A stretch of DNA of 64,000 nt from an uncultured Pelagibacteraceae bacterium (GTDB lineage: Bacteria > Pseudomonadota > Alphaproteobacteria > Pelagibacterales > Pelagibacteraceae). Below, one piece after another: positions 29,980 to 62,893 of this stretch. The notes below the pieces were generated by a model, which searched no databases, was not told where the DNA came from, and worked only from the letters and a program-made list of their open reading frames with translations. Position numbers and translations under genes: made by a program. Positions within the stretch are counted from its first letter, which is position 1, and the number at the start of each line of letters is the position of its first letter. The DNA is taken from the NCBI GenBank assembly GCA_902562875.1, contig CACEVB010000002.1, forward strand, positions 16,941 through 80,940. Direction: 5' to 3'.

Positions 29980-31599
29980 TTACATATTTCCATATTTTGG
30001 TCCTCCTCCACCCTCTGGAGTTACCCAATTAATATTCTGAGAAGGTTCTTTAATATCGCAAGTTTTACAATGAATACAATTTTGTGAATTTATGACAAAT
30101 TTATTTATATTATTCTCCATTTGAACTTCGTAAACTCCTGCTGGGCAATATCTTTGAGCGGCTTCATCATATTTTTCAAGGTTATATTTAATAGGCAATT
30201 CTGGGTCTTTAAGATGTAAATGAACAGGCTGATTATCTGTATGATTTGTTCCTGTTAAATAAACTGAACTTGTTTTATCAAATGTAATAATATTGTCTGG
30301 TTTTGGATAGTCAATTTTAGGCATTTTTTCGGCTGGCATAAGCGCCTCATGGTCTGCATGCTTATGCTTTAAAGTGAAAGGTAATTTTCCTCTAAAAAGT
30401 ATTTGATCTATTCCAGTAAAAATAATTCCTAAAATTAAACCCCAATTGAAACTAGGTTTAACATTTCTTGCTTGATGTAATTCTTTATGAACCCAGCTTT
30501 TATTAAATTTTTCCTCATAAATAGATAAACTTTTATTATCCCTAAAATGCTCGACAATTGTTTCAGCAGCAATCATTCCACTCTTCATTGCTGTGTGTGA
30601 TCCTTTTATTTTTGGCATGTTCAAAGTGCCTGCATCACAACCAATTAATAAAGCTCCGGGCATATACATTTTAGGTAAACTTTGGATACCTCCTTCTATT
30701 AATGCTCTTGCGCCATACGAGATTCTCTTTCCTCCTTTAATATATTTTTTTATAGATGGATGTGTTTTAAATCTTTGAAATTCGTCAAATGGTGACAAAT
30801 GAGGGTTTTTATAATCAAGACCAATTACATAACCTAAAAAAATTTGTTTATTCTCTGCATGGTACATAAAACTTCCACCATAGGTATTGTTATCTAATGG
30901 CCATCCTGCAGTGTGCATTACAAGTCCTTCTTCATGATGTTTTTCATCAATCTCCCATATTTCTTTAAGCCCTATACCGTACTGTTGAGGATTTTTTCCT
31001 TTATCTAATTCGAATTTATTAATTAGTTGTTTTCCTAAGTGACCCCTGCAGCCCTCGGCAAAAATTGTAACTTTTGCATGTAATTCTATTCCAGACTCAA
31101 AACTATCTTTTTTATTTCCATCTTTATCTATACCCATGTCTTGAGTAGCAACACCTTTGACTGAGCCGTCATTATCATAAAGAATTTCACTTGCTGGAAA
31201 TCCTGGGAAAATTTCAACCCCTAATTTTTCTGCTTGCTCTGCCAACCATCTACATAAATTTGCAAGACTAATAATATAGTTGTTATGATTTTGCTGAACT
31301 TTAGGTAAAAGCCATGTTGGCCAACTTATTGACTTATTTTTTCCTAGAAATAAAAATTTTTCCTTAGTAACTTTTGTTTTGATTGGGTTTTCTAATTCTT
31401 TCCAATTAGGAATTAGCTCATCTAATGCTCTAGTTTCAAAAACATTTCCAGATAAAATATGCGCACCAATTTCTGAGGCTTTTTCTAATACACAAACATT
31501 AATTTCTGGATTTAGTTGTTTTAATTTTATAGCGGAGGATAACCCTGAGGGGCCACCACCGACAATAACCACATCATATTCCATAACTTCTTTAGTCAT
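29980..31599 (-). CDS. Electron transfer flavoprotein-ubiquinone oxidoreductase
   Basis: GGGPSG, GAHILSG, YCPAGVYE, NCIHCKTCDIK, PEGGGGP. Confidence 0.96.
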   Translation of the reverse strand: MTKEVMEYDVVIVGGGPSGLSSAIKLKQLNPEINVCVLEKASEIGAHILSGNVFETRALDELIPNWKELENPIKTKVTKEKFLFLGKNKSISWPTWLLPKVQQNHNNYIISLANLCRWLAEQAEKLGVEIFPGFPASEILYDNDGSVKGVATQDMGIDKDGNKKDSFESGIELHAKVTIFAEGCRGHLGKQLINKFELDKGKNPQQYGIGLKEIWEIDEKHHEEGLVMHTAGWPLDNNTYGGSFMYHAENKQIFLGYVIGLDYKNPHLSPFDEFQRFKTHPSIKKYIKGGKRISYGARALIEGGIQSLPKMYMPGALLIGCDAGTLNMPKIKGSHTAMKSGMIAAETIVEHFRDNKSLSIYEEKFNKSWVHKELHQARNVKPSFNWGLILGIIFTGIDQILFRGKLPFTLKHKHADHEALMPAEKMPKIDYPKPDNIITFDKTSSVYLTGTNHTDNQPVHLHLKDPELPIKYNLEKYDEAAQRYCPAGVYEVQMENNINKFVINSQNCIHCKTCDIKEPSQNINWVTPEGGGGPKYGNM

Positions 31600-31620
31600 G
31601 TAATTTTTTTACAGTATTTA

Positions 31621-32574
31621 CTATTTTTGTATAGTGTTTAATTTGTTCAGCTCTTCTAGAAATTGAGGTAGAGCTTCAAAAAGATCAGCTTCTAAACCAT
31701 AATCAGCAATACTGAATATTGGTGCCTCTCCATCTTTATTGATTGCGACAATTACTTTGCTCTCTTTCATTCCAGCCAAATGTTGAATTGCTCCTGAAAT
31801 TCCAACTGCAATATATAAATCTGGCACAACCACCTTACCCGTTTGCCCAACTTGATGATCGTTTGTTATATATCCTGCATCTACAGCAGCTCTTGAAGCT
31901 CCAATTGCTGCGTTAAGTTTATCCGCAACAGCTGTAATTAATTTAAAATTATCTCCACTTTGCAAACCTCTTCCGCCAGATATTACAATTCTCGCAGTTC
32001 CAAGTTCAGGTCTGTCTGACTTGATCTCCTCTTTTTTTACAAATTTTGTTGAAGAGTACTCCTCGCCAGTATCTCCCTTTTCTATTTCTGCTGACCCACC
32101 AGAAGAAGGTGCTGGTTCAAAAGAAGTGGGTCTTACTGTAACACATTTTTTTGGATCATTACTTTTAACAGTTGCAAATGCATTTCCTGCATAAATTGGT
32201 CTTAAAAAAGTATCTGACGAAATAACTTTTATAATATCGCTAACCTGAGATATATCTAGTTTAGCAGCAACTCTCGGCATTAAATTTTTACCGAAGGTAT
32301 TCGCAGCGCTTACAATGTGTGAATATTTATCCGCATATTTTAAAATTACAGGGACATAATTTTCCGCAACATAGTTTTCATATATCAAATTATCAACATG
32401 TATTACTTTTTTCACGCCGGAAACTTCCGATAATGATTTGGCAACAGGATCAGAATTATGTCCCATAATCAATACATGAACATCTTCATCAATTTTTGTT
32501 GCAGCATTTATTACATTAAGAGTAAATGGTTTTAATTCTTTATTGCTGTGCTCCGCTATCAATAGAACTGACAT
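31621..32574 (-). CDS. etfA: Electron transfer flavoprotein alpha subunit
   Basis: RPIYAGNA, GASRAAVDAG, QVGQTGK, GISGAIQHLAGM. Confidence 0.97.
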   Translation of the reverse strand: MSVLLIAEHSNKELKPFTLNVINAATKIDEDVHVLIMGHNSDPVAKSLSEVSGVKKVIHVDNLIYENYVAENYVPVILKYADKYSHIVSAANTFGKNLMPRVAAKLDISQVSDIIKVISSDTFLRPIYAGNAFATVKSNDPKKCVTVRPTSFEPAPSSGGSAEIEKGDTGEEYSSTKFVKKEEIKSDRPELGTARIVISGGRGLQSGDNFKLITAVADKLNAAIGASRAAVDAGYITNDHQVGQTGKVVVPDLYIAVGISGAIQHLAGMKESKVIVAINKDGEAPIFSIADYGLEADLFEALPQFLEELNKLNTIQK

Positions 32575-33323
32575 TAGATTACTTTTGCCTCATTTTTTAA
32601 TTTATTTACTAATTCAGCCACATTAGCAACTTTGATACCTGCTTTTCTTTTTGGTGGCTCTTCAACTTTAATTTGTTCGATTCTAGGTTTTGTATCAACC
32701 CCCAAATCTGTAGCACTCATTTGATCTAAAGGTTTTTTTTTTGCTTTCATTATGTTAGGCAATGAAGCATACCTGGGTTCATTTAATCTTAAATCACACG
32801 TAACAATTGCAGGTATTTTCACCTCAATAGTTTCTAATCCTTCATCAACTTCTCTTGTTACTTCCAAACTTTTATCTTTTACTTCAATTTTTGATGCAAA
32901 GGTCGCTTGAGGCCAATTGAGTAACGCTGCTAACATTTGACCTGTTTGATTACAATCATCATCAATTGCTTGTTTACCCATAAATACTAAATCTGGTTTT
33001 TCTTTTTCTACTATAGCTTTTAAAATTTTAGAGACAGCTAGCGGCTCAACTATTCCCTCTGTTTTGACATGAATTCCTCTATCAGCTCCTACTGCTAGAG
33101 CCTTTCTGACAGTTTCTTGAGCTTTGTCTTCACCTATTGTAATTGCAACAATCTCTTTTGCTTTTCCAGATTCTTTTATTCTTACTGCCTCCTCAATTGC
33201 ATTATCATCTGGTGGATTTGTAGACATTTTAACATTATCAGTCACTATTCCACTGTTGTCTTCCTTAACTCTAATTTGAACATTGTAATCAATTACTCTT
33301 TTAACAGCTACTAATATTTTCAT
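32574..33323 (-). CDS. etfB: Electron transfer flavoprotein beta subunit
   Basis: [33 protein letters not shown]. Confidence 0.97.
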
Positions 33324-35755
33324 TATGCTCTCAATAATTTATTTTTAGGATCATAAGGACTATCCTCTAAAATAGTCGCTTCATGTTTCATCCCCAATAT
33401 TTCAATCTTTAGTTTTTGGCCTACGTTAGCTAACTGTGGTTTTACCATTCCTAACGCTATTGATTTTCCTAATCTAAATCCGTAATCTCCACCGGTTGCT
33501 CTTCCTATAACGCTACCATTTTCATAAATTGGATTATTTCCCAAAACATCAGCATTATCAACATTGTGTACTTCGAGTGTAACTAGCTTATTATCAAATC
33601 CTTTTTCTCTCCATTTGTTCAGCGCATCAAGACCAATAAATCTTCCCTTATTAGGATGTATAAATCTATCTAAACCACTTTCATAAGGAGAGTATTCTAT
33701 AGATAATTCAGTACCTACCAATTTATATGATTTTTCAACTCTTAAACTATTCATAGCTCTAATTCCAAATGGTTTTAATCCTAGATCTTTTCCAGCATCC
33801 ATTAATTTATCAAATATATGATTTTGATATTCAATTGGATGATGAAGTTCCCAACCTAGTTCTCCAACAAAATTTACTCTCATAGCATTAACAGGAGCAT
33901 AACCTACGTCTACATTCTTAGCACTGAGCCATTTGAAATTATCATTTGAAAAATCATCTTTAGAAACTCTTGTCATTAGCTCCCTTGCTTTAGGGCCTGA
34001 TACAACTAGAACGCCAGTGCTATTAGTTAAATTTTCAAATTGAACTGAGCCATCTTGTGGCATCCATTTTAATATCCAGTCATGGTCTAATCTTTGATAT
34101 GCTCCAGCCGAAACAAGGTAAAAACTATTCTCTGACTCTCGCATTACTGTAAATTCAGAGTGAACACCACCTTTTGTATTCAATGCGTGACATAAATTAA
34201 TTCTTCCAATTTTCTTTGGTAATTTATTCGCCACAAGATTATCTAAAAACTCCTCAGCCTTTGGTCCTTTAATTCTGCATTTTGCAAAAGCCGTCATATC
34301 TAATAGACCAACATTTTCTCTTACATTTTTGCATTCTTTCTTAATTGCATCAAACCATTTAGATCTTCTAAATGACCAATGATCTTTTTGTTCCATTCCA
34401 TCAGTTGCGAAGAAATTTGGTCTTTCCCATCCAAATTTTTGACCAAAAACAGCTCCAAGGTTTTTCATTCGATCATAACATGGTGCTGTTCTAAGTGGTC
34501 TTGCAGCTGGTCTCTCTTCATCGGGAAAATGAGTTATAAATACATGGCTATACGCCTCCTCATTTTTTTCTTTTAAATAAGATTTAGAGCAATAATCCCC
34601 ATATCTTCTTGGTTCTACTCCAAGCATGTCAATTGTTGGTTCTCCATCAATTATCCACTCTGCTAATTGCCAGCCTGCACCACCTGCGGCTGTTATTCCA
34701 AAACTATGACCTTCATTAATCCAAAAATTTTTTAAACCCCAAGCAGGTCCTACTATTGGATTACCGTCAGGTGTATAACAAATTGCACCGTTATAAACTT
34801 TTTTTACTCCAACTTCTCCAAAAGCTGGTACACGATGAATTGCACCTTCTATGTGTGGCGCAAGTCTTTCTAGATCTTCTTGAAATAATTCGTATTCAGA
34901 ATCTTTTGATGGACCATTAACGTAACATGCTGGAGCACCATCTTCGTATGGGCCTAATATAAGTCCACCCGCTTCTTCTCTCATGTACCATCTACTGTCA
35001 CTATCTCTTAGTACTCCCATTTCAGGTAGACCGTCTTTTTTTCTTTTTTGAATTTCTGGATGCGGTTCAGTAACAATATATTGGTGTTCTACTGGAATTA
35101 CTGGTATATCTAAACCTACCATCTTACCCGTTTGACGGGCAAAATTACCTGAACAGGAAATTACATGTTCACATTCAATTGATCCCTTATCTGTTTCCAC
35201 TATCCAGCCAGTCTTTGTTTGTTTAATACTTGTGACTGCAGTATTTCTATAAATTTCTGCACCTCTATTTCTAGCACCTGTTGCTAATGCTTGTGTTAAA
35301 TCTGCTGGCTGAATATATCCGTCTTCAGGATGTTGTATTGCGCCAACTAAATCATCTGTATGACATAAAGGCCAAATTTCTTTGACTTGTTCTGGTTTTA
35401 AAAAATTAACCTTCACACCAATTGTTTGAGCAACTCCTGCATATTGATAATACTCATCCATCCTATCATTATTGCTAGCTAATCTAATGTTTGACACAAC
35501 ACTGAACCCTACATTTTTTCCAGTTTCCTCCTCTAAATTTTTATATAAATTTACTGCATATTTATGAAGTTGTCCCACAGAGTAACTCATATTGAAGAGT
35601 GGTAGTAATCCTGCAGCATGCCAGGTAGACCCCGATGTAAGTTCTTTTCTTTCGACCAAAACAACATCGGACCAGCCCTTTTTGGCTAAATGATATAAAG
35701 CACTTACTCCTACTACTCCACCTCCAACAACAACAACTTTAGCTTTATTTTTCAT
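33323..35755 (-). CDS. Dimethylglycine dehydrogenase-like FAD/GcvT-domain oxidoreductase
   Basis: [22 protein letters not shown]-terminal GcvT domain (GELGWELH); stop overlaps the etfB start. Confidence 0.88.
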
Positions 35756-35799
35756 TAATTGATTTCTACTAGATTTTTCATATTTTACGAAACAAAAAT

Positions 35800-36006
35800 T
35801 TAATAATCATCATCAGAATCTCTCCAACCTTTAATATACATCAAATACGCCGCAACACTTACACTAATTGCTCCAGCTACCATGCCGCAGTTAAGCCCTA
35901 CAACTTTACCGAAAAAATACCATCCAATTTGTGTAGCTCCAATAGGAGGTATACATAAAATTGCCATCAAGACTGGTATCTTTTTATAAAAAGGCCATTT
36001 ATCCAT
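35800..36006 (-). CDS. 68-aa two-TM hypothetical membrane protein
   Basis: Likely start MDKWPFYKK at 36006, overlapping the upstream stop (TAATG). Confidence 0.65.
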   Translation of the reverse strand: MDKWPFYKKIPVLMAILCIPPIGATQIGWYFFGKVVGLNCGMVAGAISVSVAAYLMYIKGWRDSDDDY

Positions 36007-36470
36007 TATATTGATGAACCCATATCTAAAGGTTGAGAGACTGAGGTAGTTAGCCAACAATCTTTTAAAGGACCCGAGGATTTATATTTTTCAACCTTCC
36101 ACTGAAATTTATAATATTTTTTATCATCATCCATAATTGTTACTTCGTACATTGCAACTTCATTTGTTATATATACCTGATCTACTTTATGCTCTTTGTG
36201 GTTTAAAAGCATTGAGTAGGATGCGCCTTTCAACATTGATTTAAACTTAGCTAACGGACCAGTATATCTTTGGTTATTTGGGTGTGCAAATTCCCATGTT
36301 TGTTCTATACCACTATCTTTTTTTGGTTCGTCATTATTCATCAAACCTCTTAATTGAATTTTTACAACTTGTATCGGCTCTATTCCATTATTTGGTTTTA
36401 TTAACTCGCCAAAAGCTGGTAAATTATAGAAAATTATTATTAGAATTAAACTTAATCTTTTTAAATACAT
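36006..36470 (-). CDS. Secreted hypothetical protein (DUF4864-like)
   Basis: Signal peptide, QVVKIQL, FAHPNN, CWLT. Confidence 0.7.
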   Translation of the reverse strand: MYLKRLSLILIIIFYNLPAFGELIKPNNGIEPIQVVKIQLRGLMNNDEPKKDSGIEQTWEFAHPNNQRYTGPLAKFKSMLKGASYSMLLNHKEHKVDQVYITNEVAMYEVTIMDDDKKYYKFQWKVEKYKSSGPLKDCWLTTSVSQPLDMGSSI

Positions 36471-36523: not shown

Positions 36524-37465
36524 ATGAAAATAGGATTTATTGGCTTAGGCAATGTAGGTGGAAAATTAGCAAATAACTTGCTTAAAAGCAGATATAGATT
36601 AATTGTTAGAGATTTAGATCCAAAATTATTAAAGAAATTTAAAAAAAGGGGGGCAGTTATTGCTACTTCTCCAAAAGATTTAGCTGAAAAGAGTGACGTA
36701 ATTATTACCTGTCTACCATCACCAAAATCGTGTTCTAGAGTTATGACTGCAAAAGACGGTGTGCTTAAAGGTTTAAAAAAAAATAAAATTTGGCTTGAAA
36801 TGAGCACTACTGATCAATCAGAGGTAAAAAGAATAGGAACAATGATCAAGAAAAAGGGTTCTTATGCACTAGATGTGCCAGTGAGTGGTGGTTGTCATAG
36901 AGCGGCAACTGGAAATATTTCGATATTTGCAGGAGGCGAAAAAAAAGTTTTCAAAAAAGTTTTACCAATTTTAAAGTGTATGGGTAGAAAAATTTTATAC
37001 ACAGGAGAATTAGGAACAGCATCAATTTTAAAAGTTATCACAAATTATTTGGCATCTGTTCATTTAGCAGCACTTGGAGAAGCATGGACAGTAGCAAAAA
37101 AATCAAAATTAAATTTAAATAAAACTTATAAAGGTATTGCTGCTTCCTCTGGTAATTCATTTGTTCATGAGTCAGAAAGTCAGGTAATATTAAATGGTTC
37201 ATATAATATTAATTTTACAATGGATTTGGTAAAAAAGGATTTGAAGTTATTTAATGATCTTTCTAAAAGACTTAAAACACCTTTAGAAATATCACCCTTT
37301 GTACTTAACATATTTAATAAAGCTCAAAAAAAATATGGATCTAAAGCTTGGTCATCGATGGTCGTTAAAAGATTAGAAGATAAGTACAAATTAAAATTTA
37401 GAGCACCAGGTTTTCCAAAAGAATTAAAAGATTTTGAAAAGCAAAAAAAAGGTTATGAAATATAA
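36524..37465 (+). CDS. NAD(P)-dependent beta-hydroxyacid dehydrogenase (3-hydroxyisobutyrate DH family)
   Basis: GFIGLGNVG, EMSTT, PVSGG, catalytic K in LKVITN. Confidence 0.85.
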   Translation: MKIGFIGLGNVGGKLANNLLKSRYRLIVRDLDPKLLKKFKKRGAVIATSPKDLAEKSDVIITCLPSPKSCSRVMTAKDGVLKGLKKNKIWLEMSTTDQSEVKRIGTMIKKKGSYALDVPVSGGCHRAATGNISIFAGGEKKVFKKVLPILKCMGRKILYTGELGTASILKVITNYLASVHLAALGEAWTVAKKSKLNLNKTYKGIAASSGNSFVHESESQVILNGSYNINFTMDLVKKDLKLFNDLSKRLKTPLEISPFVLNIFNKAQKKYGSKAWSSMVVKRLEDKYKLKFRAPGFPKELKDFEKQKKGYEI

Positions 37466-37485
37466 CAATTATGCTACAATAATTT

Positions 37486-38919
37486 ATGTTAGATAAAAAA
37501 AAGTTCTATATAAATGGTGAATGGGTAGATCCAAAAAACCCAAATAATTTTGAGGTAATAAATCCCTCTACTGAAGAAGTGTGCGCTGTTATAAATTTAG
37601 GAAGTTCAGATGATACTAATTCTGCAGTTAAGGCTGCAAAAAAAGCTTTTGAAACATGGAAAGAAACAACTAAAGATGAAAGATTAAAATTGTTAGAGAA
37701 ACTTCTAACAATATACAAGGCTAGATGGGATGATATGACAGATGCAATTACAACTGAATTAGGTTGTCCAAAAGATTGGTGTTCTGCAAATCAAACCTCA
37801 TCAGGAGCAGGTCATATAGAGGATTTTATAAAAAGATTAAAAGAATTTAATTTTGAACCTGGGTTTGATAAAGGCTCAGTTAATCATATTGTGTATGAAC
37901 CAATTGGAGTTTGTGGTTTAATAACTCCCTGGAACTGGCCGATAAATCAGATTGCGCTAAAAGTAATTCCTGCGTTTGCAACCGGATGTACAATGATATT
38001 AAAACCTTCAGAGATCGCTCCACTTTCGGGAATGTTATTTGCAGAAATGATACATGAAGCAGGTTTCCCTGCAGGTGTTTTTAATTTAGTTAATGGAGAT
38101 GGTCCTGGTGTAGGAACGGATTTATCAGGACATCCTGATGTTGATATGGTTTCTTTTACAGGTTCTACTAGGGCAGGAAAATTAATAACTAAAAATGCAG
38201 CTGATACAATTAAAAGAGTTTGTTTGGAGTTAGGTGGCAAGGGTGGAAATATTGTTTTTGCAGATTCATATCCAGATGCAGTGAGAGATGGTATTAGAAA
38301 CGTAATGAGTAATTCAGGACAATCTTGTGATGCTCCAACAAGAATGTTGGTTGAAAAATCCATTTATAAGAGAGCAGTTGAAGAAGCTGCTGATGAAGCA
38401 AATAAAATCAAAGTAGATTTAGCATCTAAAGCGGGTGAGCATATTGGTCCTGTGATATCTAAAACTCAATTTAATAAAATCCAAAGTCTTATTAAAAGTG
38501 GCATAGATGAAGGTGCAACCTTAGTTGCTGGGGGACCAGATAAACCTGAGAACTTTAAAAAAGGTTACTTTATAAAACCTACTGTATTTACTGATGTTAA
38601 TAATGAAATGAGAATAGCAAAAGAGGAAATTTTTGGTCCAGTTTTATCTATCATACCATTTGAAAACGAAGAAGATGCAATTAAAATAACAAATGATACA
38701 GAATATGGACTTGGAAATTATCTGCAAACAGAGGATAAGGAAAAAGCTAAAAGAGTATCAAAAAAGTTAAGATCAGGAATTGTTTATGTAAATCATAAAC
38801 CTGCAGACTCTGGAACACCTTTTGGAGGATATAGACAGTCAGGTAATGGACGTGAAGGAGGCACTTGGGGTCTTCATGAATATTTAGAGGTCAAAACAAT
38901 AACTGAATGGAAAAATTAA
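37486..38919 (+). CDS. Aldehyde dehydrogenase
   Basis: ITPWNWP, FTGST, LELGGK, GQSC, EEIFGPV. Confidence 0.95.
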   Translation: MLDKKKFYINGEWVDPKNPNNFEVINPSTEEVCAVINLGSSDDTNSAVKAAKKAFETWKETTKDERLKLLEKLLTIYKARWDDMTDAITTELGCPKDWCSANQTSSGAGHIEDFIKRLKEFNFEPGFDKGSVNHIVYEPIGVCGLITPWNWPINQIALKVIPAFATGCTMILKPSEIAPLSGMLFAEMIHEAGFPAGVFNLVNGDGPGVGTDLSGHPDVDMVSFTGSTRAGKLITKNAADTIKRVCLELGGKGGNIVFADSYPDAVRDGIRNVMSNSGQSCDAPTRMLVEKSIYKRAVEEAADEANKIKVDLASKAGEHIGPVISKTQFNKIQSLIKSGIDEGATLVAGGPDKPENFKKGYFIKPTVFTDVNNEMRIAKEEIFGPVLSIIPFENEEDAIKITNDTEYGLGNYLQTEDKEKAKRVSKKLRSGIVYVNHKPADSGTPFGGYRQSGNGREGGTWGLHEYLEVKTITEWKN

Positions 38920-39304: not shown

Positions 39305-39309
39305 CTTCA

Positions 39310-40221: not shown

Positions 40222-40235
40222 TATATTATAAACTT

Positions 40236-44134: not shown

Positions 44135-44140
44135 TTAATG

Positions 44141-46305: not shown

Positions 46306-46306
46306 T

Positions 46307-53560: not shown

Positions 53561-54349
53561 ATGCAAAATAAATCATTAAAGAATAAAAAAATAGTTATTT
53601 CAGGTGGTGCATCTGGAATAGGTTTAGCAATAACCAAAACCTGTTTAAAGAGAGGTGCAACTGTACTAGTTACAGATATAGATAAAAAATTCATAAATAG
53701 GCTAAAAAGAAATTCTAGTTATAAAAAAAGTTTATTTTTATATAATTTTGATGCTGCTGATGAGAATGATGTTAGTAATTTTTTTAAATCTATTTCATTA
53801 AAATTTAAAAAAATTGATTGTCTAATTAATAATGTTGGTATAGCTGGGCCAACTGGAACATTAGAGAAGCTCACATCTAAAGATTGGGAACAAACTTTAA
53901 AAATAAATGTTATAAGTCATTTTTATTTTACTAAACTTGCAATACCTTTATTAAAAAAGAATAAAAGTAGTTCAATAATAAATATTTCTTCAGGGGCTGG
54001 AGTGTTAGGTTTTCCTTTAAGATCTCCATATGCAGCGAGTAAATGGGCAGTAATAGGAATTACAAAAACTTTAGCTATGGAGCTAGGAAGATATAAAATT
54101 AGAGTGAATGCTATTTGTCCAGGCACCATTAAAGGAAATAGAATGTCAAAAGTAATAGAAGATAAAGCTAAGTTTCTTAAGGTTTCTAAAAAAAAAGTTG
54201 AAAATGATTTTCTAAAAATGTCATCAATGAAAAGTTGGATATATGGTGATGACGTTGCTAATATGTGTGCGTTTTTAGTATCTAAAGATTCCGAAAGAAT
54301 TTCAGGTCAGGTAATAGGTGTTAATGGTAATGAACTTAGACTTGATTAA
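53561..54349 (+). CDS. Short-chain dehydrogenase/reductase
   Basis: GGASGIG, NNVG, YAASK, VNAICPG. Confidence 0.93.
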   Translation: MQNKSLKNKKIVISGGASGIGLAITKTCLKRGATVLVTDIDKKFINRLKRNSSYKKSLFLYNFDAADENDVSNFFKSISLKFKKIDCLINNVGIAGPTGTLEKLTSKDWEQTLKINVISHFYFTKLAIPLLKKNKSSSIINISSGAGVLGFPLRSPYAASKWAVIGITKTLAMELGRYKIRVNAICPGTIKGNRMSKVIEDKAKFLKVSKKKVENDFLKMSSMKSWIYGDDVANMCAFLVSKDSERISGQVIGVNGNELRLD

Positions 54350-54350
54350 A

Positions 54351-54788
54351 TTAAAGTTGTCCAATTAATTCAGGAGCAATTTTTTTAGATTTTCCAACAA
54401 ATCTTAAAGAATTTATTTTATCAAGGTTAGACTTATCTCCATCGACTACAACAAAACCTATCATGCCCATAGCTTTATGTGGTGTACACTGATAAGCATA
54501 AATTCCAGGAATAGTAAAAGTGTATTCTACATCCACATTCATTTTTGATTTAAACTTATCAACACCATCTGGTGTTCCATTTCTTATAAATTCTACGTTA
54601 TGACCCTTAGTTGTTGATTTCCAAATAATAGTGTCTCCAGTATTAATTTTGGCAATTTTTTGCGAGTAAACCATCATTTCATTTCCTGATTTATTAAGCA
54701 TTTCTATTACTAAGGTCTCAGAAAAAGCTTTCAGTGTAAAAAGTGAGCTTAAAAGGACGTAAAAGATTATTTTTGACACTGATTTCAT
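54351..54788 (-). CDS. Pseudoazurin-like blue copper protein
   Basis: Signal peptide, EMLN, GHNV, YQCTPHKAMGM type-1 Cu ligands. Confidence 0.9.
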   Translation of the reverse strand: MKSVSKIIFYVLLSSLFTLKAFSETLVIEMLNKSGNEMMVYSQKIAKINTGDTIIWKSTTKGHNVEFIRNGTPDGVDKFKSKMNVDVEYTFTIPGIYAYQCTPHKAMGMIGFVVVDGDKSNLDKINSLRFVGKSKKIAPELIGQL

Positions 54789-54853
54789 GAGGCCTATATA
54801 TTCTTAATTTTTGATCAATCAATAAAGATTTTTGGTACATGTTGCCACATGAT

Positions 54854-55261
54854 TTAAAGTTTTAAATCTTTTTCCGATATCTCCATAAATGGAAAATGTG
54901 AGTCTTCAAAATAAATATTTTTGGCTTTTTTCAAGATACTAATATCATCAAGTAAACCTGCATAAAGGTAAAATTTTTTCCATCTATCAACAAAAGTTAA
55001 TACTGGTGCTGCACATTTGCCACAAAAATACTTGGTTATTTTATTACCACTACCTCCTATATGATCGAAGGTAGACAATAAAGATTTGTCTAAATCTAAT
55101 GCTTTTTCACGAAGTTCAATGATTGACATCATGCCTCCTATTTTTTTTCTACAGTCTACACAATGACAACTAAATACTCTTGGAAGCTCGTCTAATGTAA
55201 CATTAAATTTAATAGCACCGCAAATACAACCACCTTTTTTATTTACAAACTTTTTTTCCAT
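54854..55261 (-). CDS. GFA (glutathione-dependent formaldehyde-activating/CENP-V) family protein
   Basis: GGCICG, CHCVDCRK, FCGKC. Confidence 0.88.
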   Translation of the reverse strand: MEKKFVNKKGGCICGAIKFNVTLDELPRVFSCHCVDCRKKIGGMMSIIELREKALDLDKSLLSTFDHIGGSGNKITKYFCGKCAAPVLTFVDRWKKFYLYAGLLDDISILKKAKNIYFEDSHFPFMEISEKDLKL

Positions 55262-56205
55262 TAATTTCTAACTTTCTTTAAGTATTTGTTTCTTAAAATT
55301 TGTAGATTAATCAGATAATCATCTCTTATATCAGCTAATTTCGTCACAGATTTACCTCTGGCCTGACTCTTAGTACCTTTAATAATTCTATCAGATAGCT
55401 TTTTTGTAAGTTTTGGAGCTTTTAACTTGGTCCAAGGTAATTTTAAAGCTGGTCCGAATTGTCTTAACATATGTTTCATTCCTTGATTTCCACCCGCAAG
55501 GTGAAAAGTTAAAAATGTTCCCATAAGTGAATATCTTAACCCTGGTCCATCTTCAATAGCTCTATCCAGTTCCTTTGTAGTTGCATAATTTTCGTTAATT
55601 ATGTGCAAACCTTCTCTCCATAAGGCCTCTTGTAGCCTGTCCGCTAAGTAACCAGGTAATTCTTTCTTAACCATAATTGGACTCATTGAAATTGATTCAT
55701 AAAATTTCTTAGCTTTTGTTAAAAATAATTTTTTGGTTTTTTTACCTGGCACAATTTCAATGCCTGGTAATAAATATACCGGATTGAAAGGATGGCCTAT
55801 CAAGCCCCTCTCGGGATGTTTACATTTTGAGTATATTTTGGATGGAAGTAAACCAGAGGAACTAGAGGATATAATACTACTTGGTTTTGAGTATAAACCA
55901 ATTTTTTTTAAAAGTTTAGTTTTTATAGTATAATTTTCAGGAGCACATTCAAAAATAAATTCTGCATTTGTTAAAGCATCATGTAAATTTGTGTAAAAGG
56001 ATAGATTATGTAAATTTAATTTATTTTTTTTGAACATTTTTTTTACAAATGGCCAAGTCCTTTTGATTTCTTTAATTAAATTATTTTTATGTTTAAAATT
56101 AATGTCGTAAGCTCTTACTTTTTTACCGTGGGCTAAACACCTAATCACCCAACCTGTTCCTATTACTCCAGTTCCTATCACAGCAACATTTTTAAAAATA
56201 GACAT
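55261..56205 (-). CDS. cdhA: L-carnitine 3-dehydrogenase
   Basis: GTGVIGTGW, SSSSG, GHPFNPVYLLP, DRLQEALWRE, GPALKLPWTKL. Confidence 0.85.
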   Translation of the reverse strand: MSIFKNVAVIGTGVIGTGWVIRCLAHGKKVRAYDINFKHKNNLIKEIKRTWPFVKKMFKKNKLNLHNLSFYTNLHDALTNAEFIFECAPENYTIKTKLLKKIGLYSKPSSIISSSSSGLLPSKIYSKCKHPERGLIGHPFNPVYLLPGIEIVPGKKTKKLFLTKAKKFYESISMSPIMVKKELPGYLADRLQEALWREGLHIINENYATTKELDRAIEDGPGLRYSLMGTFLTFHLAGGNQGMKHMLRQFGPALKLPWTKLKAPKLTKKLSDRIIKGTKSQARGKSVTKLADIRDDYLINLQILRNKYLKKVRN

Positions 56206-57089
56206 TACTTGTGTTTTACAAGTTTTAATTTCTCTCTCGTTTCTTGAGGTGTCATAATAGATGCACCTAAATCTTCAACTATTCGTCTAGCCTTCTCAAC
56301 TAATTGAGGATTTGTAGCTAGCTTACCTTTAGATATATATAGATTATCCTCTAATCCTACTCTTGGATTACCTCCCATGACAACAGTTTGAGCTACATAA
56401 GGCATTTCATTTCTTGAAATTGCAAAACCAGACCAAACGGCCTCTTTTGGCATAATATCTTTCATTGCTTGCATTGCTAAAGGAGTTGCAGGTGCTCCCC
56501 ATGGTATACCTAAACACATTTGAAACATTGGAGGATCGCTCAACAAACCTTCCTTATAAAGTTGAGCACCAAACCACATATTGCCAAGATCGAAAGCCTC
56601 TATTTCTGGTTTTACTTTTATTTCCTGCAATTTTTTTGCAGCTTTTCTTAAGTCTCTTGGTGTATTTACAGTTATCACAGATCCGTCTCCAAAGTTTAGT
56701 GTTCCACAATCTAATGTGCATATTTCTGGAAGAAATTGTTCTGCATTTGCAATTCTTTCCATCACATTAATCATGTCAGTTAATGGTCCGAACTCTAAAG
56801 GTTTTTTTTCTCCAATATCAAGGTCTCCTCCCATGCCTGTTGTTAAATTAAGAACAACATCTGTATCTGAAGATCTTACCCTATCAACAACTTCTTTATA
56901 AAGTTCTAATCGTCTACTAGGAGTTCCATCATCCTCTCTTACATGAATATGAGCGATTGCGGCCCCAGCTTTTGCTGCCTCTATTGAGGCTTTTGCAATT
57001 TGTTCTGGAGTTTTTGGTAAATCTGGATGTTTGCTAGCTGTATCGCCAGATCCTGTTACCGCACAAGAGATAAATACTTTATTATTCAT
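56205..57089 (-). CDS. cdhC: Beta-keto acid cleavage enzyme (3-dehydrocarnitine cleavage, BKACE/Kce family)
   Basis: CAVTG, AHIHVR, TTGMGG, LDCGTLNF, RVGLEDN; translationally coupled to carnitine DH. Confidence 0.85.
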   Translation of the reverse strand: MNNKVFISCAVTGSGDTASKHPDLPKTPEQIAKASIEAAKAGAAIAHIHVREDDGTPSRRLELYKEVVDRVRSSDTDVVLNLTTGMGGDLDIGEKKPLEFGPLTDMINVMERIANAEQFLPEICTLDCGTLNFGDGSVITVNTPRDLRKAAKKLQEIKVKPEIEAFDLGNMWFGAQLYKEGLLSDPPMFQMCLGIPWGAPATPLAMQAMKDIMPKEAVWSGFAISRNEMPYVAQTVVMGGNPRVGLEDNLYISKGKLATNPQLVEKARRIVEDLGASIMTPQETREKLKLVKHK

Positions 57090-57147: not shown

Positions 57148-58005
57148 ATGGAATTAAATAAAATAAAAGTAAGACGTAGCTTTATTTTTACACCTGGTCT
57201 AAATCCTGAAATGTTCCCTAAAGCTCTAGCTTCAGGTGCAGACATGGTATGTATTGAATTAGAAGATGGAATTGCAATTAAAGATAAGGATGAAGCACGG
57301 AAGAATACAATTAATGCATTAAAAACATTAGAGGTAAAAAATGATGTAGAGTTAGTTGTTAGAGTAAATTGCCAAAGAACTAAACCGGGTCTTTTAGATT
57401 TAGAAGCTTTTGTTTCAAGTAAACTAAAAGTTAAAGCTTTGATGCTACCAAAAGTTAAAACTCCAGATGAGATAACTTTCATTGATGATTTATTAACTGA
57501 TTGTAACTTGGATACTGATCTTCATGTTATAATGGAAACAAATGAGGCCCTTGAAAATATATATAATATTGCTCATGCAAGTAAAAGAATTGTAGCATTG
57601 TATTTTGGAGGTGTTGATATGGCTGCAGAGCTAAGAGTTCCAAATAGTTATGAAAATCTAATTTATGCAAGATCTAAATTGGTACACGCCGGTGCTAGTG
57701 TTGGGGTTGATGTTATAGATGTTCCTTATCTGGATCTAGAAGATATGGATGGAATGAAAAAAGAAGCAGAACTTGTTAGAAATTTAGGATTCACTGGCAA
57801 AGGGTCTATTCATCCTAAACAAATAAATATTTTAAATAAAGTTTTTACTCCGTCTGATGAAGAAATAACTAAAGCAAAAAAAATAATAGATCAATTTAAC
57901 GCATCTGATACAGGACTTGTTGTTATTGAGGGTAAGTTAATCGAGAAACCTGTTCTTAGAGAAATGCAAAGAAGAATATTGGTAGCTGAGAAAATAAGTA
58001 AATGA
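57148..58005 (+). CDS. CitE/HpcH-family CoA-ester lyase
   Basis: RRSFIFTPG, ELEDG, VRVN, LPKV, MET, GKGSIHPKQI. Confidence 0.88.
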   Translation: MELNKIKVRRSFIFTPGLNPEMFPKALASGADMVCIELEDGIAIKDKDEARKNTINALKTLEVKNDVELVVRVNCQRTKPGLLDLEAFVSSKLKVKALMLPKVKTPDEITFIDDLLTDCNLDTDLHVIMETNEALENIYNIAHASKRIVALYFGGVDMAAELRVPNSYENLIYARSKLVHAGASVGVDVIDVPYLDLEDMDGMKKEAELVRNLGFTGKGSIHPKQINILNKVFTPSDEEITKAKKIIDQFNASDTGLVVIEGKLIEKPVLREMQRRILVAEKISK

Positions 58006-58472
58006 GTATCTTTTTAACAAAACAAAAAATTAAAAAAGAGTGGACCGATTATAATGGTCATATGAACGTTGCTTATTATGTATTAATATTTGATCAATAT
58101 GGTTCAGAGGAGTTAATGACATTATTTAAAATGGGTGAAGAGTCTGCAAAAACAACAAAAAAAAGTACTATGGTCGTCGAGTCGCACATAACATACAATC
58201 AGGAAGTTCAAGAAGGTGATGAGGTGGACGTTAATCTAATTTTTTGCGACCATGATAAAAAAAGAATTCTATATAAGCTTGAAATGGTCCATAGTGAGAA
58301 AAAATATGTTGCATCAACAATTGAGGCATTATCTCTATATGTAGATTTAGCTGAAAGAAAAGTTGCAGAATTTGAAAAAGAGAAAGTTCAAATAATGGAT
58401 GACTATATATCAAAACATAAAGATAATTTTAAAATTGATAATTTAAAATTTTTATCAAAATTAAAAAAATAA
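58002..58472 (+). CDS. cdhB: Hotdog thioesterase, betainyl-CoA thioesterase-like
   Basis: EWTDYNGHMNVAYY motif; carnitine cluster context. Confidence 0.7.
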   Translation: MSIFLTKQKIKKEWTDYNGHMNVAYYVLIFDQYGSEELMTLFKMGEESAKTTKKSTMVVESHITYNQEVQEGDEVDVNLIFCDHDKKRILYKLEMVHSEKKYVASTIEALSLYVDLAERKVAEFEKEKVQIMDDYISKHKDNFKIDNLKFLSKLKK

Positions 58473-58521: not shown

Positions 58522-59349
58522 ATGAAAATTAATTTACTTTCAGGCGCTTTAGGTGCTGAAATTAAAGGTATTAGCTTAAAAGATACCTCAAAAGAAAATT
58601 GGGAAAAGATTAATTCTTTAATGTTAGAACACAAGGTAGTTTTCTTTAGAGATCAGGATATTTCATCGGATGAACAGATGAAGTTAGCAAGGCACTTTGG
58701 ACCGCTTGAAAAACATGTATATGTCAAAGCTAGAAATAACTATCCAGAAATTTTAAGAATTATTAAAGCACCAGATGAAAAACATCAATGGGGCGAAGGT
58801 TGGCATACAGATGTAAGCTACAATCCCAAACCAACTAAAGTTATAATATTAAGATCTCATAAAATCCCACCTGTGGGTGGAGATACAATGTTTTCTAACA
58901 TGGAGTTAGCATACGAGACTTTAGATAATGACATTAAGAATAAAATTAAAAGAAAAAAGGCAGTTCATAGTTCTTTAGGCGCAGCCGCGTTTACTGAAAA
59001 TTATAAAGAAATGCAAGGAAATGGAAATTTACAAGAATATTCAAATATTCACCCTATAGTAAGAGTTCACCCAGAAACTGGAAATAAAATTTTATTTGTT
59101 AATTCTATGTACACCAAAAAAATTTTAGATTTAAGTGAAAGAGAGAGCGATGAAATATTAAAAAAAATTTTTAAACATCAAGAAAGATTAGATTTTACTT
59201 GTAGGATTAAATGGACAGAAAACGCTGTAGCTATTTGGGATAACAGATCACTCCTTCATCAAGGATTAAGTGACTTTTTTCCTGGTCGTGGCTTAGGTTA
59301 TGCAAGGGTTATGGATAGAATAGCTATTGAAGGTGATGAACCAAAATAA
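58522..59349 (+). CDS. TauD/AtsK-family 2OG-Fe(II) dioxygenase
   Basis: LGAEI, WHTDVSY, GGDT, HPIVRVHPETG, WDNR..LH. Confidence 0.9.
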   Translation: MKINLLSGALGAEIKGISLKDTSKENWEKINSLMLEHKVVFFRDQDISSDEQMKLARHFGPLEKHVYVKARNNYPEILRIIKAPDEKHQWGEGWHTDVSYNPKPTKVIILRSHKIPPVGGDTMFSNMELAYETLDNDIKNKIKRKKAVHSSLGAAAFTENYKEMQGNGNLQEYSNIHPIVRVHPETGNKILFVNSMYTKKILDLSERESDEILKKIFKHQERLDFTCRIKWTENAVAIWDNRSLLHQGLSDFFPGRGLGYARVMDRIAIEGDEPK

Positions 59350-59352
59350 ATT

Positions 59353-60936
59353 ATGAATTTTGATTATATAATAATTGGCGGGGGATCTGCTGGTTGTGTA
59401 TTAGCCAACAGGCTAAGTGAAAATTCAAAAAATAATGTAGCACTTATAGAAGCAGGTAAGGATAGCGATATTTGGAAAGTTAATATGCCATTGGCAATAC
59501 TTTATGCTATGCATGATCCTAAGTATAATTATAAATATTACTCTGAGCCTGAACCACACTTAAATAATAGAAAAATTTTTTGTCCACGAGGAAAAATGAT
59601 TGGTGGTTGCTCTGCACATAATGGAATGGTTTATGTTAGAGGAAATCCTAACGATTATTCAAGATGGGCTAGAATGGGACTTGATGAGTGGTCTTATGAA
59701 AAAGTTTTACCTTATTTCAAGAAAATTGAAACATGGTCTGAAGGTGGAAATGAATATAGAGGTGGCAGTGGTATTTTGCCAGTTAACCAGTCAAAAAACT
59801 CAAATCCTCTTTTCAAAGCATTTGTAAATTCTGCCGGGGAAGCTGGGTACAAAATAAATTCAGATATGAACGGTAAAGATCAAGAGGGTTTTGGAATGTA
59901 TGACGTAACTATACATAAAGGTGAGAGAGCAAGTGTTTCTAAGTATTATTTAAAACCAGCTAAATCTAGAAAAAATTTAAAAATCCTAACTGAAAAATAC
60001 GTAAAAAGAATAATATTCGATGGAAAAAAAGCTATTGGTATAGAAATTTTAAGCAAAAACAAAAAAGTTGAAAAAATTTACTCAAATAAAGAAATTATTT
60101 TAAGCGCGGGTGCAATTAATTCTCCACAAATACTGATGTTATCTGGAATAGGTCCAGGAGATCATTTAAGAGAAAATGGGATAAATGTTATTCATAATTT
60201 AGAAGGTGTTGGTGCTAATCTTCAAGATCACCTTGAGGTTTATATACAACAAGAATGTAAAAAACCTTTAACACTTTACTCTTATGTTAATAAAATTAAT
60301 ATGATTAAAATTGGAATTCAATGGTTCTTATCTAAAAAAGGACCTTGTTCTTATTCATTTTTAGAAGCAGGAGGTTTTTGTAAATCCTCTCCAGAACAAG
60401 AATATCCTAATATTCAATTCCATTTTTTTCCTGCATTTGTAATTGATCATGGTTTAGTTGATCCTGATAGACACGGTTTTCAACTACATGCAAGTCCAAA
60501 TCATCCAAAAAGTCGAGGTAATATAAAATTAAGAAGCTCAAATATTTTTGACTCTCCAATAATTAAATTTAATTATTTAGAGCATGAAGATGATTTGAGG
60601 CAGACAATTGAATGTGTGAAAGTTGCAAGAAATATACTTAAACAAAATTCTCTTAAAGAATATGCGGGAAGAGAGATTGGGCCTGGTGATGATGCTAAAT
60701 CTGATGAAAATATTGTTGAGTATATAAGATCAAAAGCTGAGACAGCCTATCATCCCTCATGTACACTTAAAATGGGTATAGATAAATCAGCGGTTGTAGA
60801 TCAAAAGCTAAAAATTCATGGGCTTGAAGGCATAAGAGTAGCTGATGCATCAGTTCTTCCTGAAATTACTAGTGGGAATTTAAATGCACCTGTAATTATG
60901 GTTGCAGAAAAAGCTTCAGACGTCATTTTAAATTAA
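59353..60936 (+). CDS. betA: Choline dehydrogenase (GMC oxidoreductase)
   Basis: GGGSAG, RGKMIGG, NLQDHLEVYIQ, ETAYHPSCT, GNLNAP. Confidence 0.85.
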   Translation: MNFDYIIIGGGSAGCVLANRLSENSKNNVALIEAGKDSDIWKVNMPLAILYAMHDPKYNYKYYSEPEPHLNNRKIFCPRGKMIGGCSAHNGMVYVRGNPNDYSRWARMGLDEWSYEKVLPYFKKIETWSEGGNEYRGGSGILPVNQSKNSNPLFKAFVNSAGEAGYKINSDMNGKDQEGFGMYDVTIHKGERASVSKYYLKPAKSRKNLKILTEKYVKRIIFDGKKAIGIEILSKNKKVEKIYSNKEIILSAGAINSPQILMLSGIGPGDHLRENGINVIHNLEGVGANLQDHLEVYIQQECKKPLTLYSYVNKINMIKIGIQWFLSKKGPCSYSFLEAGGFCKSSPEQEYPNIQFHFFPAFVIDHGLVDPDRHGFQLHASPNHPKSRGNIKLRSSNIFDSPIIKFNYLEHEDDLRQTIECVKVARNILKQNSLKEYAGREIGPGDDAKSDENIVEYIRSKAETAYHPSCTLKMGIDKSAVVDQKLKIHGLEGIRVADASVLPEITSGNLNAPVIMVAEKASDVILN

Positions 60937-60962
60937 TATAAAATTCAAAAAAACTTTGGTAT

Positions 60963-61925
60963 ATGTCGCCAATGGTTAAAGATCAAAATACAAAAGGTAT
61001 TTTATACATAATGACTGGAATGGCTTTTTTTTCCATTCAAGATTCTTTAATAAAATTTATATATAACGATATTGCGTTATTTGAGCTATACTTAATAAGA
61101 ACAATAATACAAGCAAGTCTACTTTTATCTTTAGTTTTAATAACAAAGCGTAATGTTACTTTTAAAACACACTACCCTTTTTTAACCCTTTTAAGAGTTG
61201 TATGTTTCTTTTTTGGTTTTAGTTTTTTTTATATCTCTTTGACCTTTATGACACTTGCAATGACAAGTGCCTTGTTTTTCTCTTGCCCATTTTTTATGTC
61301 AATGTTTGCAAAATTCTTTCTGAAAGAGCAAATTGGTATTAGAAGATGGTCAGCAATTGTTGTTGGTTTTATCGGTGTAATTGTGGTTTTAAATCCAGCA
61401 CTTGAGGAATTTAATTTTCTTAAATTGGCACCAGTAGCTTGCGCAATTTGTTATGCAATTTCGATGACTATAACTAAATATACATCTGACAAGGATGATA
61501 TTTATACACAAATGTCTTGGTTGTATGTATTCGCTATTTCTGCAGGAATAATAATTTTTTTAGTTAGTGGTGACGGTAAATTTAACACTTTTTCTGATCC
61601 GACTTTTCAATTCATTACAAGAGAGTGGTTTACAAATCCTTCAGAGGCATGGCCTTATGTAGTTGTGATGGGTATCGTTGCTTTTATATCATTTTTGTGC
61701 GTCTTCTCAGCGTATAGTATTGCATCACCATCTATCATTTCTTTGTTTGAATACTCATATATTATTTGGGCAATGCTTGCTGGGTATATTTTATTTGAAA
61801 CAATTCCTCTGCCAAGAACTTTTTTTGGTGCTGCAATTATTATAGCTGCTGGTGTTTATATTTATTATAGAGAAAAAGTAAAAGGTCAAATGATTGTAAC
61901 AGATACACCAACTGTTAATAGATGA
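60963..61925 (+). CDS. DMT/EamA transporter
   Basis: FSIQDSLIK, RRWSAIVVGFIGV, FEYSY. Confidence 0.88.
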   Translation: MSPMVKDQNTKGILYIMTGMAFFSIQDSLIKFIYNDIALFELYLIRTIIQASLLLSLVLITKRNVTFKTHYPFLTLLRVVCFFFGFSFFYISLTFMTLAMTSALFFSCPFFMSMFAKFFLKEQIGIRRWSAIVVGFIGVIVVLNPALEEFNFLKLAPVACAICYAISMTITKYTSDKDDIYTQMSWLYVFAISAGIIIFLVSGDGKFNTFSDPTFQFITREWFTNPSEAWPYVVVMGIVAFISFLCVFSAYSIASPSIISLFEYSYIIWAMLAGYILFETIPLPRTFFGAAIIIAAGVYIYYREKVKGQMIVTDTPTVNR

Positions 61926-62893
61926 TAAAAAAAAATTATATCCCGACAATCGACATTTCCTTTATTTATAAATATGGATTGGATAATAAAAAATCTTTAA
62001 AGATATTAAAAGAAATAGAACAAGCTTGTACTAAAGTTGGTTTTTTTCAAATAATAGGTCATGGTATTAAACAAAAGGATATTAAAAAAATTACTAAAGT
62101 CGGAAATTTTTTTTTTAATTTAAAAAGTGATAAAAAATTTAAATTAGCTCCAAGAAAATGGAATAAAAAAAATAAAAATTTATATAGAGGTTATTTTCCA
62201 AATGATATTAATGGTAAAGAAGGTTTAGATATTGGAGATTTAAAAATTACTAAAGCTTACTCAAAGAAAATTAATACTAAATATATAGAATTTATTGAGT
62301 TGAATAAGTGTTTTAAAAGAAAATCTATTAAAATTTTATCTAATTACTTTGACGATATTTTTAAATTAAGTGAGTTATTATTTAAAGGTATAATAAAACT
62401 ATACGGTAAAGACCCTATAATTTCTAAAAAAGCATTTACAAGATACAAAACTTTAAGCACATTAAGATTTAATTTTTATCCAAATCAAAATAAACCAGTA
62501 GAAATTTCCAGACAAGATGGTGTTGCTTTAGGTTGCGAAACACATGTTGATAGCGGGGTATTTACTGTATTATATCAAGACAAAACTGGCGGACTACAAG
62601 TTCAAAATAGAAAAAGCAAAAAATGGTATAATGTACCATTTAATAATAAAGCTTTTGTTGTAAATACTGGAAGAGCTATGGAATTTTTAAGCAAAGGCAA
62701 ATACAAAGCAACCAATCATAGAGTACTCTGGAACAAGAAAAAAAGAATGTCTATTCCTTTTTTTTTTGAACCATCGTTTGATTTTATCATGAATAAATCA
62801 TTTCTTAATGAGAATTATAATAAAAAAAATGGAGTGATGTACAAAACTTTTTTAAATAAATCTTTAAAAAAGTTTATTGAGTATCAAAGGTAA
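61922..62893 (+). CDS. Isopenicillin-N-synthase-family 2OG-Fe(II) oxygenase
   Basis: IPTIDI, GFFQIIGHGI, HVD, GGLQV, HRV, RMSIPFF. Confidence 0.88.
   Translation: MIKKNYIPTIDISFIYKYGLDNKKSLKILKEIEQACTKVGFFQIIGHGIKQKDIKKITKVGNFFFNLKSDKKFKLAPRKWNKKNKNLYRGYFPNDINGKEGLDIGDLKITKAYSKKINTKYIEFIELNKCFKRKSIKILSNYFDDIFKLSELLFKGIIKLYGKDPIISKKAFTRYKTLSTLRFNFYPNQNKPVEISRQDGVALGCETHVDSGVFTVLYQDKTGGLQVQNRKSKKWYNVPFNNKAFVVNTGRAMEFLSKGKYKATNHRVLWNKKKRMSIPFFFEPSFDFIMNKSFLNENYNKKNGVMYKTFLNKSLKKFIEYQR

Follow-up and report, generated by a model that had tools for sequence, protein, structure and literature searches.

Does a run of some 33 kb of genes in SAR11 form one route by which several trimethylammonium compounds are turned into glycine betaine and then demethylated, or is it put together from parts of separate origin? 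SAR11 is the most abundant heterotroph of the surface ocean, and nitrogenous osmolytes form a large, fast-cycling dissolved organic pool. The genes in question lie at positions 29980–62893 of a 64,000-nucleotide stretch, here called the window (contig CACEVB010000002.1 of an uncultured Pelagibacteraceae bacterium), from an assembly of 1.07 Mb in 27 contigs that is 87% complete and has about 30% G+C. An initial annotation had described them as a regulator-free funnel converging on glycine betaine and particular to this SAR11 lineage. Calling of open reading frames (ORFs), combined with Pfam and NCBIfam searches, gave a gap-free map of the region, which contains all gene classes of that annotation. 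It also holds genes for a HIBADH-like dehydrogenase, a glyoxalase-fold protein, MsrA, a beta-lactamase-fold hydrolase, an amidase, an iron-dependent alcohol dehydrogenase (Fe-ADH), a second ATP-binding cassette (ABC) ATPase, an SDR-family protein, a cupredoxin, a GFA-family protein, a CitE/HpcH-like lyase, a TauD-family dioxygenase, and a 2OG-Fe(II) oxygenase (2OG, 2-oxoglutarate).

The region is probably an accessory, modular catabolic island of the Pelagibacterales for trimethylammonium osmolytes, which in the sub-lineage of the window lies beside the core genes for dimethylglycine dehydrogenase (DMGDH), electron transfer flavoprotein (ETF), and ETF:ubiquinone oxidoreductase (ETF-QO). Direct support comes from gene families, synteny, co-occurrence, and distribution, from which all substrates are predicted.

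Distribution and modular build

Comparisons covered 50 SAR11 loci around orthologues of the gene for the BBOX-like Fe/2OG oxygenase, each with full 10-kb flanks, 36 genomes of the same genus, and 24 genomes of a second Pelagibacterales family; a marker, BKACE, was counted in 401 Pelagibacterales species genomes, each at least 80% complete. The gene order of the window recurs in 27 of the 50 loci. In the BBOX neighborhoods, BKACE and the SDR gene are each found in 44 of 50, the carnitine dehydrogenase-like (CDH) and thioesterase genes in 43 each, and the TauD gene in 42, while 39 have a GDPD-family phosphodiesterase gene no more than 10 kb from BBOX. The second ABC ATPase (ATPase2) adjoins BBOX in all 50, even in island forms without a permease or binding protein nearby. 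The CitE/HpcH-like lyase is restricted to one of the forms described below, the long one (29/50), and GFA (8/50) and cupredoxin (2/50) are rarer still. Among the same-genus genomes, 15 of 36 have a BBOX orthologue; BKACE accompanies it in 14 of these 15 and is found in none of the 21 genomes without BBOX. Given that the order is kept in 27 loci and that BBOX and BKACE co-occur, the clustering is far beyond chance, and the co-occurrence across genomes that the initial annotation had presupposed is confirmed. Across the order, the BKACE marker is present in 144 of 401 species genomes (117/297 in the genus, 25/27 in the second family, and 0/75 in seven other genera), and an island of this type was published in 2025; the view of the window's lineage as special has to be given up.

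The loci fall into forms that differ by whole blocks. The minimal form consists of HIBADH, aldehyde dehydrogenase (ALDH), BBOX, ATPase2, GFA, EamA, and 2OG oxygenase genes, and adjoins the DMGDH-ETF block. The short form adds GDPD and an SDR-CDH-BKACE-thioesterase-TauD-GMC series, and encodes a binding protein and a permease of its own next to ATPase2. In the long form, that of the window, both of these are missing, and a block of 12 kb, module A, is inserted. HIBADH-ALDH is the left anchor in all forms, adjoining BBOX in the short and minimal ones, and EamA with the 2OG oxygenase is the right anchor in the minimal form. In the second family, 22–23 of the 24 genomes carry a compact cluster with the order ALDH, BKACE, CDH, BBOX, (DAO/GcvT paralogue), ATPase2, permease, binding protein, EamA, and GMC. 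The 33 kb are thus made up of modules that can occur apart and are recombined between lineages, and what had been taken for one route is a mosaic. The G+C content is flat across the region, at about 0.29–0.36, and tRNA genes, sought in the window as a mobility signal, were not found.

Block-wise differences of this kind also suit a hot spot of independent cassettes, in which only BBOX, CDH, BKACE, and the thioesterase would serve carnitine, module A would act on some amide- or ester-linked compound, and ATPase2 would power an importer for dimethylsulfoniopropionate (DMSP)-type compounds. That account is possible but clearly short of probable. Module A being a separate locus in the second family, the ATPase2 orthologue being contiguous there with DmpX/DmpW-like genes while the local DmpX-like pair lacks an ATPase, and the unlinked position of DMGDH in several island carriers all speak for it. 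Yet one chemical theme runs through the parts (onium binding proteins, methyltransferases, and choline- or carnitine-type oxidoreductases), a DAO/GcvT demethylase paralogue sits inside the second-family carnitine cluster, and module A of that family lies near a DMGDH orthologue, all of which count against it.

Table 1. Features of the region, from left to right (window coordinates)
Feature	Position	Strand	Basis or remarks
ETF-QO	29980–31599	−	Pfam
etfA, etfB	between ETF-QO and DMGDH	−	Pfam
DMGDH, 810 aa, DAO-FAO_M-GCV_T	33323–35755	−	Pfam; block 29980–35755
Small membrane-protein ORF, ~68 aa	35800–36005	−	Codon-like conservation
DUF4864 protein	36006–36470	−	Pfam
HIBADH-like dehydrogenase and ALDH	36524–38919	+	Pfam, NCBIfam
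Module A	38921–50642	mixed	Pfam, NCBIfam domain matches
Module A: glyoxalase-fold, PF02574 homocysteine methyltransferase, MsrA, beta-lactamase-fold hydrolase	hydrolase 40684–41841	+	
Module A: EamA, amidase, Fe-ADH	EamA from 41838; amidase 42737–44134	−	
Module A, importer block: second EamA	45373	+	
Module A, importer block: ABC ATPase1	46307	−	
Module A, importer block: fused double ProW permease	47428	+	
Module A, importer block: OpuAC binding protein SBP1	49638–50642	+	
GDPD-family phosphodiesterase, 214 aa	50699–51343	+	Pfam GDPD, 76.8 bits
BBOX-like Fe/2OG oxygenase	51335–52465	−	GBBH-like_N and TauD domains
Second ProV-type ABC ATPase (ATPase2)	52533–53558	+	
SDR (+), cupredoxin (−), GFA-family protein (−)	53561–55261	mixed	Pfam, NCBIfam
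Carnitine-DH-like 3HCDH (from 55261) and BKACE (from 56205)	55261–57089	−	cdhC-cdhA-like, abutting
CitE/HpcH-like acyl-CoA lyase and 4HBT_2 thioesterase (from 58002)	57148–58472	+	4-nt overlap
TauD-family dioxygenase, GMC (59353), EamA/DMT (60963), 2OG-Fe(II) oxygenase	58522–62893	+	

In this map, the MsrA frame, if begun at its first ATG, runs 55 nt into the 3′ end of the methyltransferase gene (40167–40221); translation probably starts at a later codon, since the Pfam match begins at residue 30. The product of the small ORF upstream of DMGDH is hydrophobic, with a conserved C-terminal WRDSDDDY, and shows codon-like conservation upstream of same-genus DMGDH orthologues; a Pfam search gave no match to it.

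Predicted carnitine, choline, and dimethylglycine chemistry

The reactions of BBOX, CdhABC, BetAB, and DMGDH-ETF are textbook chemistry. Applied to the window, the BBOX-like oxygenase would hydroxylate gamma-butyrobetaine to L-carnitine, the 3HCDH-type dehydrogenase would convert carnitine to 3-dehydrocarnitine, BKACE would transfer the betainyl group to CoA with acetyl-CoA and release acetoacetate, and the 4HBT thioesterase would free glycine betaine from betainyl-CoA. Choline, which GDPD may yield from glycerophosphocholine, would be oxidized by the BetA-subfamily GMC enzyme, possibly also by the Fe-ADH, and ALDH would turn betaine aldehyde into betaine. Betaine would then be demethylated, with the electrons of DMGDH passing to ETF and on to ETF-QO.

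For the first step, the BBOX-like protein scores 311.6 bits on the TIGR02409 equivalog model (cut-off 414.75) and 265.6 bits on the TmpA model (cut-off 400). Aligned to human BBOX1, it keeps the Fe triad (H198/D200/H341) and the 2OG arginine (R353), and its aromatic cage is made up of F173, F177, Y190, and Y359. N187 is kept as well, and a serine stands at the position of human N292; N191 and N292 of human BBOX1 are the carboxylate-binding asparagines. Butyrobetaine is a likely substrate because of gene context rather than sequence. The best match of the 3HCDH protein is the L-carnitine dehydrogenase model NF005471 (339 bits, cut-off 414), compared with 200 bits on the next-best unrelated family, a 3-hydroxyacyl-CoA dehydrogenase model. 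BKACE is assigned at the Pfam level only (PF05853, 309.7 bits); its gene and that of the 3HCDH protein abut at 56205, an adjacency that the second family shares with 43–44 of the 50 loci. The 4HBT_2 protein aligns to positions 345–479 of the fused carnitine dehydrogenase–thioesterase model NF005716, which suggests a betainyl-CoA thioesterase corresponding to the C-terminal domain of the fused carnitine dehydrogenases. Together the four proteins are best read as enzymes of the carnitine series, and the predicted path from butyrobetaine through carnitine to betaine is a sound inference because the module genes co-occur and are syntenic across two Pelagibacterales families. The path as initially annotated is therefore upheld by family matches, adjacency, and co-occurrence, although the scores lie under the curated cut-offs and the substrates are predicted ones. 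Carnitine-metabolism genes in offshore SAR11 genera were also described in a 2025 paper.

The same scores allow a different substrate series for the BBOX-like, CDH, and BKACE proteins, such as a TmpA-like trimethylated phosphonate or another beta-hydroxy acid, in which case carnitine would be a product of annotation transfer. Every score is below its curated cut-off, TmpA (266 bits) comes close to BBOX (312 bits), and N292 is replaced by Ser. We consider this very unlikely, given that the window has no HD-domain TmpB-like partner, that the Arg insertion which follows the N292 position in TmpA is absent from the BBOX-like protein, that the BKACE-CDH-BBOX operon order is kept in the second family, and that the thioesterase matches a domain of the fused carnitine dehydrogenase. 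Two further GBBH/TauD-type paralogues occur elsewhere in the genome, at G000:C3:47380-48471 (33% identity) and G000:C6:25541-26602 (26%); the region of the former also has a second PF02574 methyltransferase, two ALDHs, and two EamA carriers.

The GMC enzyme passes the BetA subfamily model NF002550 (748 bits, cut-off 605) and misses the TIGR01810 betA equivalog (682 bits, cut-off 732). The ALDH reaches 420 bits on the betaine aldehyde dehydrogenase (BADH) model, whose cut-off is 669, and is counted as unspecific because of that score. The two enzymes fit an oxidation of choline to betaine, and this much of the initial assignment can be kept.

The 810-aa protein at the left end has the Pfam architecture DAO-FAO_M-GCV_T-GCV_T_C and matches rat DMGDH over residues 2–798 (655 bits, E 2e−195), and the human enzyme likewise over the full length; the only other DMGDH-type paralogue of the genome reaches 449 bits against mammalian DMGDH. 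It is well assigned, from these matches, as a predicted DMGDH of the ETF-linked type. As etfBA and ETF-QO lie directly downstream, DMGDH, etfB, etfA, and ETF-QO are probably one operon. Most relatives examined have a DMGDH orthologue (55 of 61, at 76–93% identity), and the DMGDH-ETF block is core genome. The coupling of DMGDH to etfBA and ETF-QO, as first proposed, agrees with both score and adjacency, whereas the place of the block next to the island is not conserved in other carriers.

Importers, module A, and regulation

The binding protein of module A, SBP1, contains an OpuAC domain (139.6 bits) and scores 72 bits on the ProX model (cut-off 215); its best solved relative, 4xz6, is found at an E value of only 1e−14. 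SBP1 occurs in 6 of the 36 same-genus genomes versus 21 of the 24 genomes of the second family. Beside ATPase2 the window has neither a permease nor a binding protein. Outside the window, 2.6 kb beyond its right end and 12 kb to the right of ATPase2, lies a DmpX/DmpW-like pair with no ATPase alongside. Its binding protein, the only other strong OpuAC protein of the genome, has a match of E 2e−56 to the DMSP-binding DmpX structure 7YLE, and one permease gene comes after it. The orthologues of the pair in the second family are contiguous with that of ATPase2. Since this is so and the local pair is without an ATPase, ATPase2 would probably energize this DMSP-type importer just outside the window. 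In the segment G000:C2:82619-86719, the DmpX-like protein and the single permease are followed by a 242-aa protein without a family and a 452-aa GcvT protein of the DmdA-like type.

Module A did not come in at random: its genes stand together in the second family, at a locus of their own (35–76% identity), with the glyoxalase-fold, beta-lactamase-fold, amidase, Fe-ADH, ATPase1, fused permease, SBP1, EamA, and PF02574 methyltransferase genes; this locus adjoins a gene for a DmdA-like GcvT protein and is near a DMGDH orthologue. Among solved structures, the beta-lactamase-fold hydrolase comes nearest to 6-aminohexanoate-dimer hydrolases (E 1e−16), and the amidase matches 6-aminohexanoate-cyclic-dimer hydrolase (E 1e−30), with GatA scoring higher. 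There is a weak hint here that the pair may act on amide-linked omega-amino-acid compounds. Module A as a whole could conceivably import an amide- or ester-linked onium compound, release its head group, and supply a methyl donor for methionine by an undescribed pathway, a doubtful proposal that we put forward only tentatively. SAR11 has been reported to be without MetE and MetH (PMC12478193).

The methyltransferase of the module scores 175.7 bits on Pfam PF02574, 72 bits on the BHMT model NF005718 (cut-off 338), and 136 bits on an MmuM-type model (cut-off 215). It is present in 9 of the 36 same-genus genomes, and a second genomic paralogue is equally patchy. The choice of a SAR11 BHMT between the two was abandoned, as both match human BHMT and MmuM structures weakly and to a similar degree, and both are patchy. 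Some island versions carry a second PF02574 methyltransferase of 329–340 aa, about 32% identical to that of the window, whose gene sits between EamA and the beta-lactamase-fold gene (G004:C5:98672-99634, also in G005, G011, G014, and G020).

Several of these results weigh against a catabolic island for trimethylammonium osmolytes. On curated score, the BBOX, L-carnitine dehydrogenase, BADH, betA equivalog, and BHMT models are all missed. In the BBOX-like protein, Ser stands in place of the carboxylate-binding N292, and the TmpA score is nearly as high as that for BBOX. Nor did the window yield a gene whose product would use up the released acetoacetate. The homocysteine methyltransferase falls under both the BHMT and the MmuM cut-offs and is an accessory paralogue, not demonstrably BHMT by its sequence matches. 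In the island carriers G004, G011, G012, G014, and G024, DMGDH is found on a different contig or at a distance of about 100 kb, so that its linkage to the island is particular to the sub-lineage of the window. As for import, a search for the ligand of SBP1 in the PDB and a protein atlas returned family-level labels only. In strain HTCC1062, betaine and DMSP are bound by the PotD-like SAR11_1336 and trimethylamine N-oxide by SAR11_1302, while the proX-annotated, OpuAC-type SAR11_0797 gave no high-affinity ligand (PMC11485210). The proven SAR11 betaine binder thus belongs to a different family, the OpuAC annotation has already misled in SAR11, and the term "betaine-type" for the ABC system of the window, as read from sequence, is a family label only.

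No DNA-binding domain was found in any of the 33 ORFs of the region, in agreement with the initial annotation, but the absence is not specific to the cluster. AraC (PF12833), TetR (PF00440), and GntR (PF00392) domains had no match in the whole 87%-complete assembly, which gave no hit to the families that CdhR/GbdR and BetI of other bacteria belong to, and a single LysR helix-turn-helix was detected. It belongs to a gene at 25873–26763 of the window (minus strand), 3.2 kb to the left of the cluster and directly downstream of a Zn-ADH gene. Given that the genome has almost no classical regulators, "regulator-free" says little about the cluster. Control by RNA, through a riboswitch or a leader, was rejected as a substitute for protein regulators, as Rfam gave no riboswitch or regulatory RNA at the gathering threshold over the window and, at E values up to 1 over 29–64 kb, a single chance-level match (L20 leader, E 0.11). 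A structured leader in the 250-nt gap before DMGDH (35756–36005) was rejected too, for the gap contains the conserved small ORF. A hidden small regulator was likewise sought: no free-standing ORF of at least 40 aa was found in the intergenic gaps of the region, and an 86-aa frame had no Pfam match.

Meaning and comparison with known systems

If the catabolic reading is true, about one third of SAR11 species would use carnitine, butyrobetaine, and choline-type compounds as sources of methyl groups, glycine, nitrogen, and energy. What the window adds is that the island is common well beyond polar waters and modular, that a conserved 12-kb module travels with it, and that the "betaine" transporter and methyltransferase labels are insecure.

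Among characterized proteins, human BBOX1 (PDB 4bg1/3o2g) and TmpA (PDB 6npb) share with the BBOX-like protein the two-domain architecture, the iron triad, the 2OG arginine, and the aromatic cage. Unlike BBOX1, the protein of the window does not keep the N-terminal Cys3His zinc site, has Phe instead of Tyr or Trp at two cage positions, and has Ser for N292. With cdhCAB of Pseudomonas aeruginosa and CdhABC of Ruegeria pomeroyi (PMC12478193), the window has in common a 3HCDH protein of the carnitine dehydrogenase type, an abutting BKACE, and a thioesterase. It differs from cdhCAB in that a CdhR/AraC regulator (PF12833) is missing from both the window and the whole assembly, the thioesterase gene is on the opposite strand behind that of the CitE-like lyase, there is no assignable CaiX-type binding protein, and the scores are under the curated cut-offs. 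In the case of BetA/BetB, and of GbsB/GbsA from Bacillus subtilis, the common elements are a GMC enzyme that clears the cut-off of the BetA subfamily, an ALDH, and an Fe-ADH whose match to GbsB stays under the threshold; in contrast to BetA/BetB, the window is without BetI, its GMC and ALDH genes are 20 kb apart, and the ALDH is not specifically a BADH.

BetA/BetB-type routes are the classic means of osmoprotectant synthesis, and they count in favor of an island that is mainly osmo- or cryoprotective, importing precursors and keeping glycine betaine (or carnitine) as a compatible solute. This explanation is improbable. Judged by record titles, the closest loci are from Red Sea and Mediterranean single-amplified genomes (SAGs) and metagenome-assembled genomes, a Hawaiian HIMB isolate, and many AG-series SAGs, a series of tropical or subtropical origin; a restriction to polar populations is thus not seen among them. 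Moreover, the island abuts DMGDH-ETF-ETF:QO and carries a homocysteine methyltransferase gene, and SAR11 is known to oxidize betaine (PMC9321204). Protection is, on the other hand, the reading given to the glycine-betaine island of 17–20 genes that a 2025 mBio paper on Arctic SAR11 isolates describes from half of its own subclade Ia.1 genomes; its authors proposed betaine uptake and production as a polar adaptation and found the island genes enriched at high latitude (PMC12421898).

With that Arctic island the window shares a nearly identical gene order: HADH, ALDH, glyoxalase-type lyase, GDPD, BBOX, ABC ATPase, ADH/SDR, CDH, and BKACE, followed by class II aldolase (HpcH/CitE), thioesterase, a second TauD-type "BBOX," choline dehydrogenase, and DMT (PMC12421898). 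Of the 17 gene types named there, about 15 recur in the window without a change of relative order, as compared by annotation only, and both islands are carried by part of the population only and have no mobility genes. The window differs in lacking the SMR gene and the binding protein and permease next to ATPase2, and in abutting DMGDH-ETF. Between its glyoxalase-fold and GDPD genes, it has in addition the 12-kb module with the methyltransferase, MsrA, two hydrolases, Fe-ADH, two DMT carriers, an ATPase, the fused permease, and the binding protein. The island type is therefore one already published for Arctic strains, of which the window is a further, extended member.

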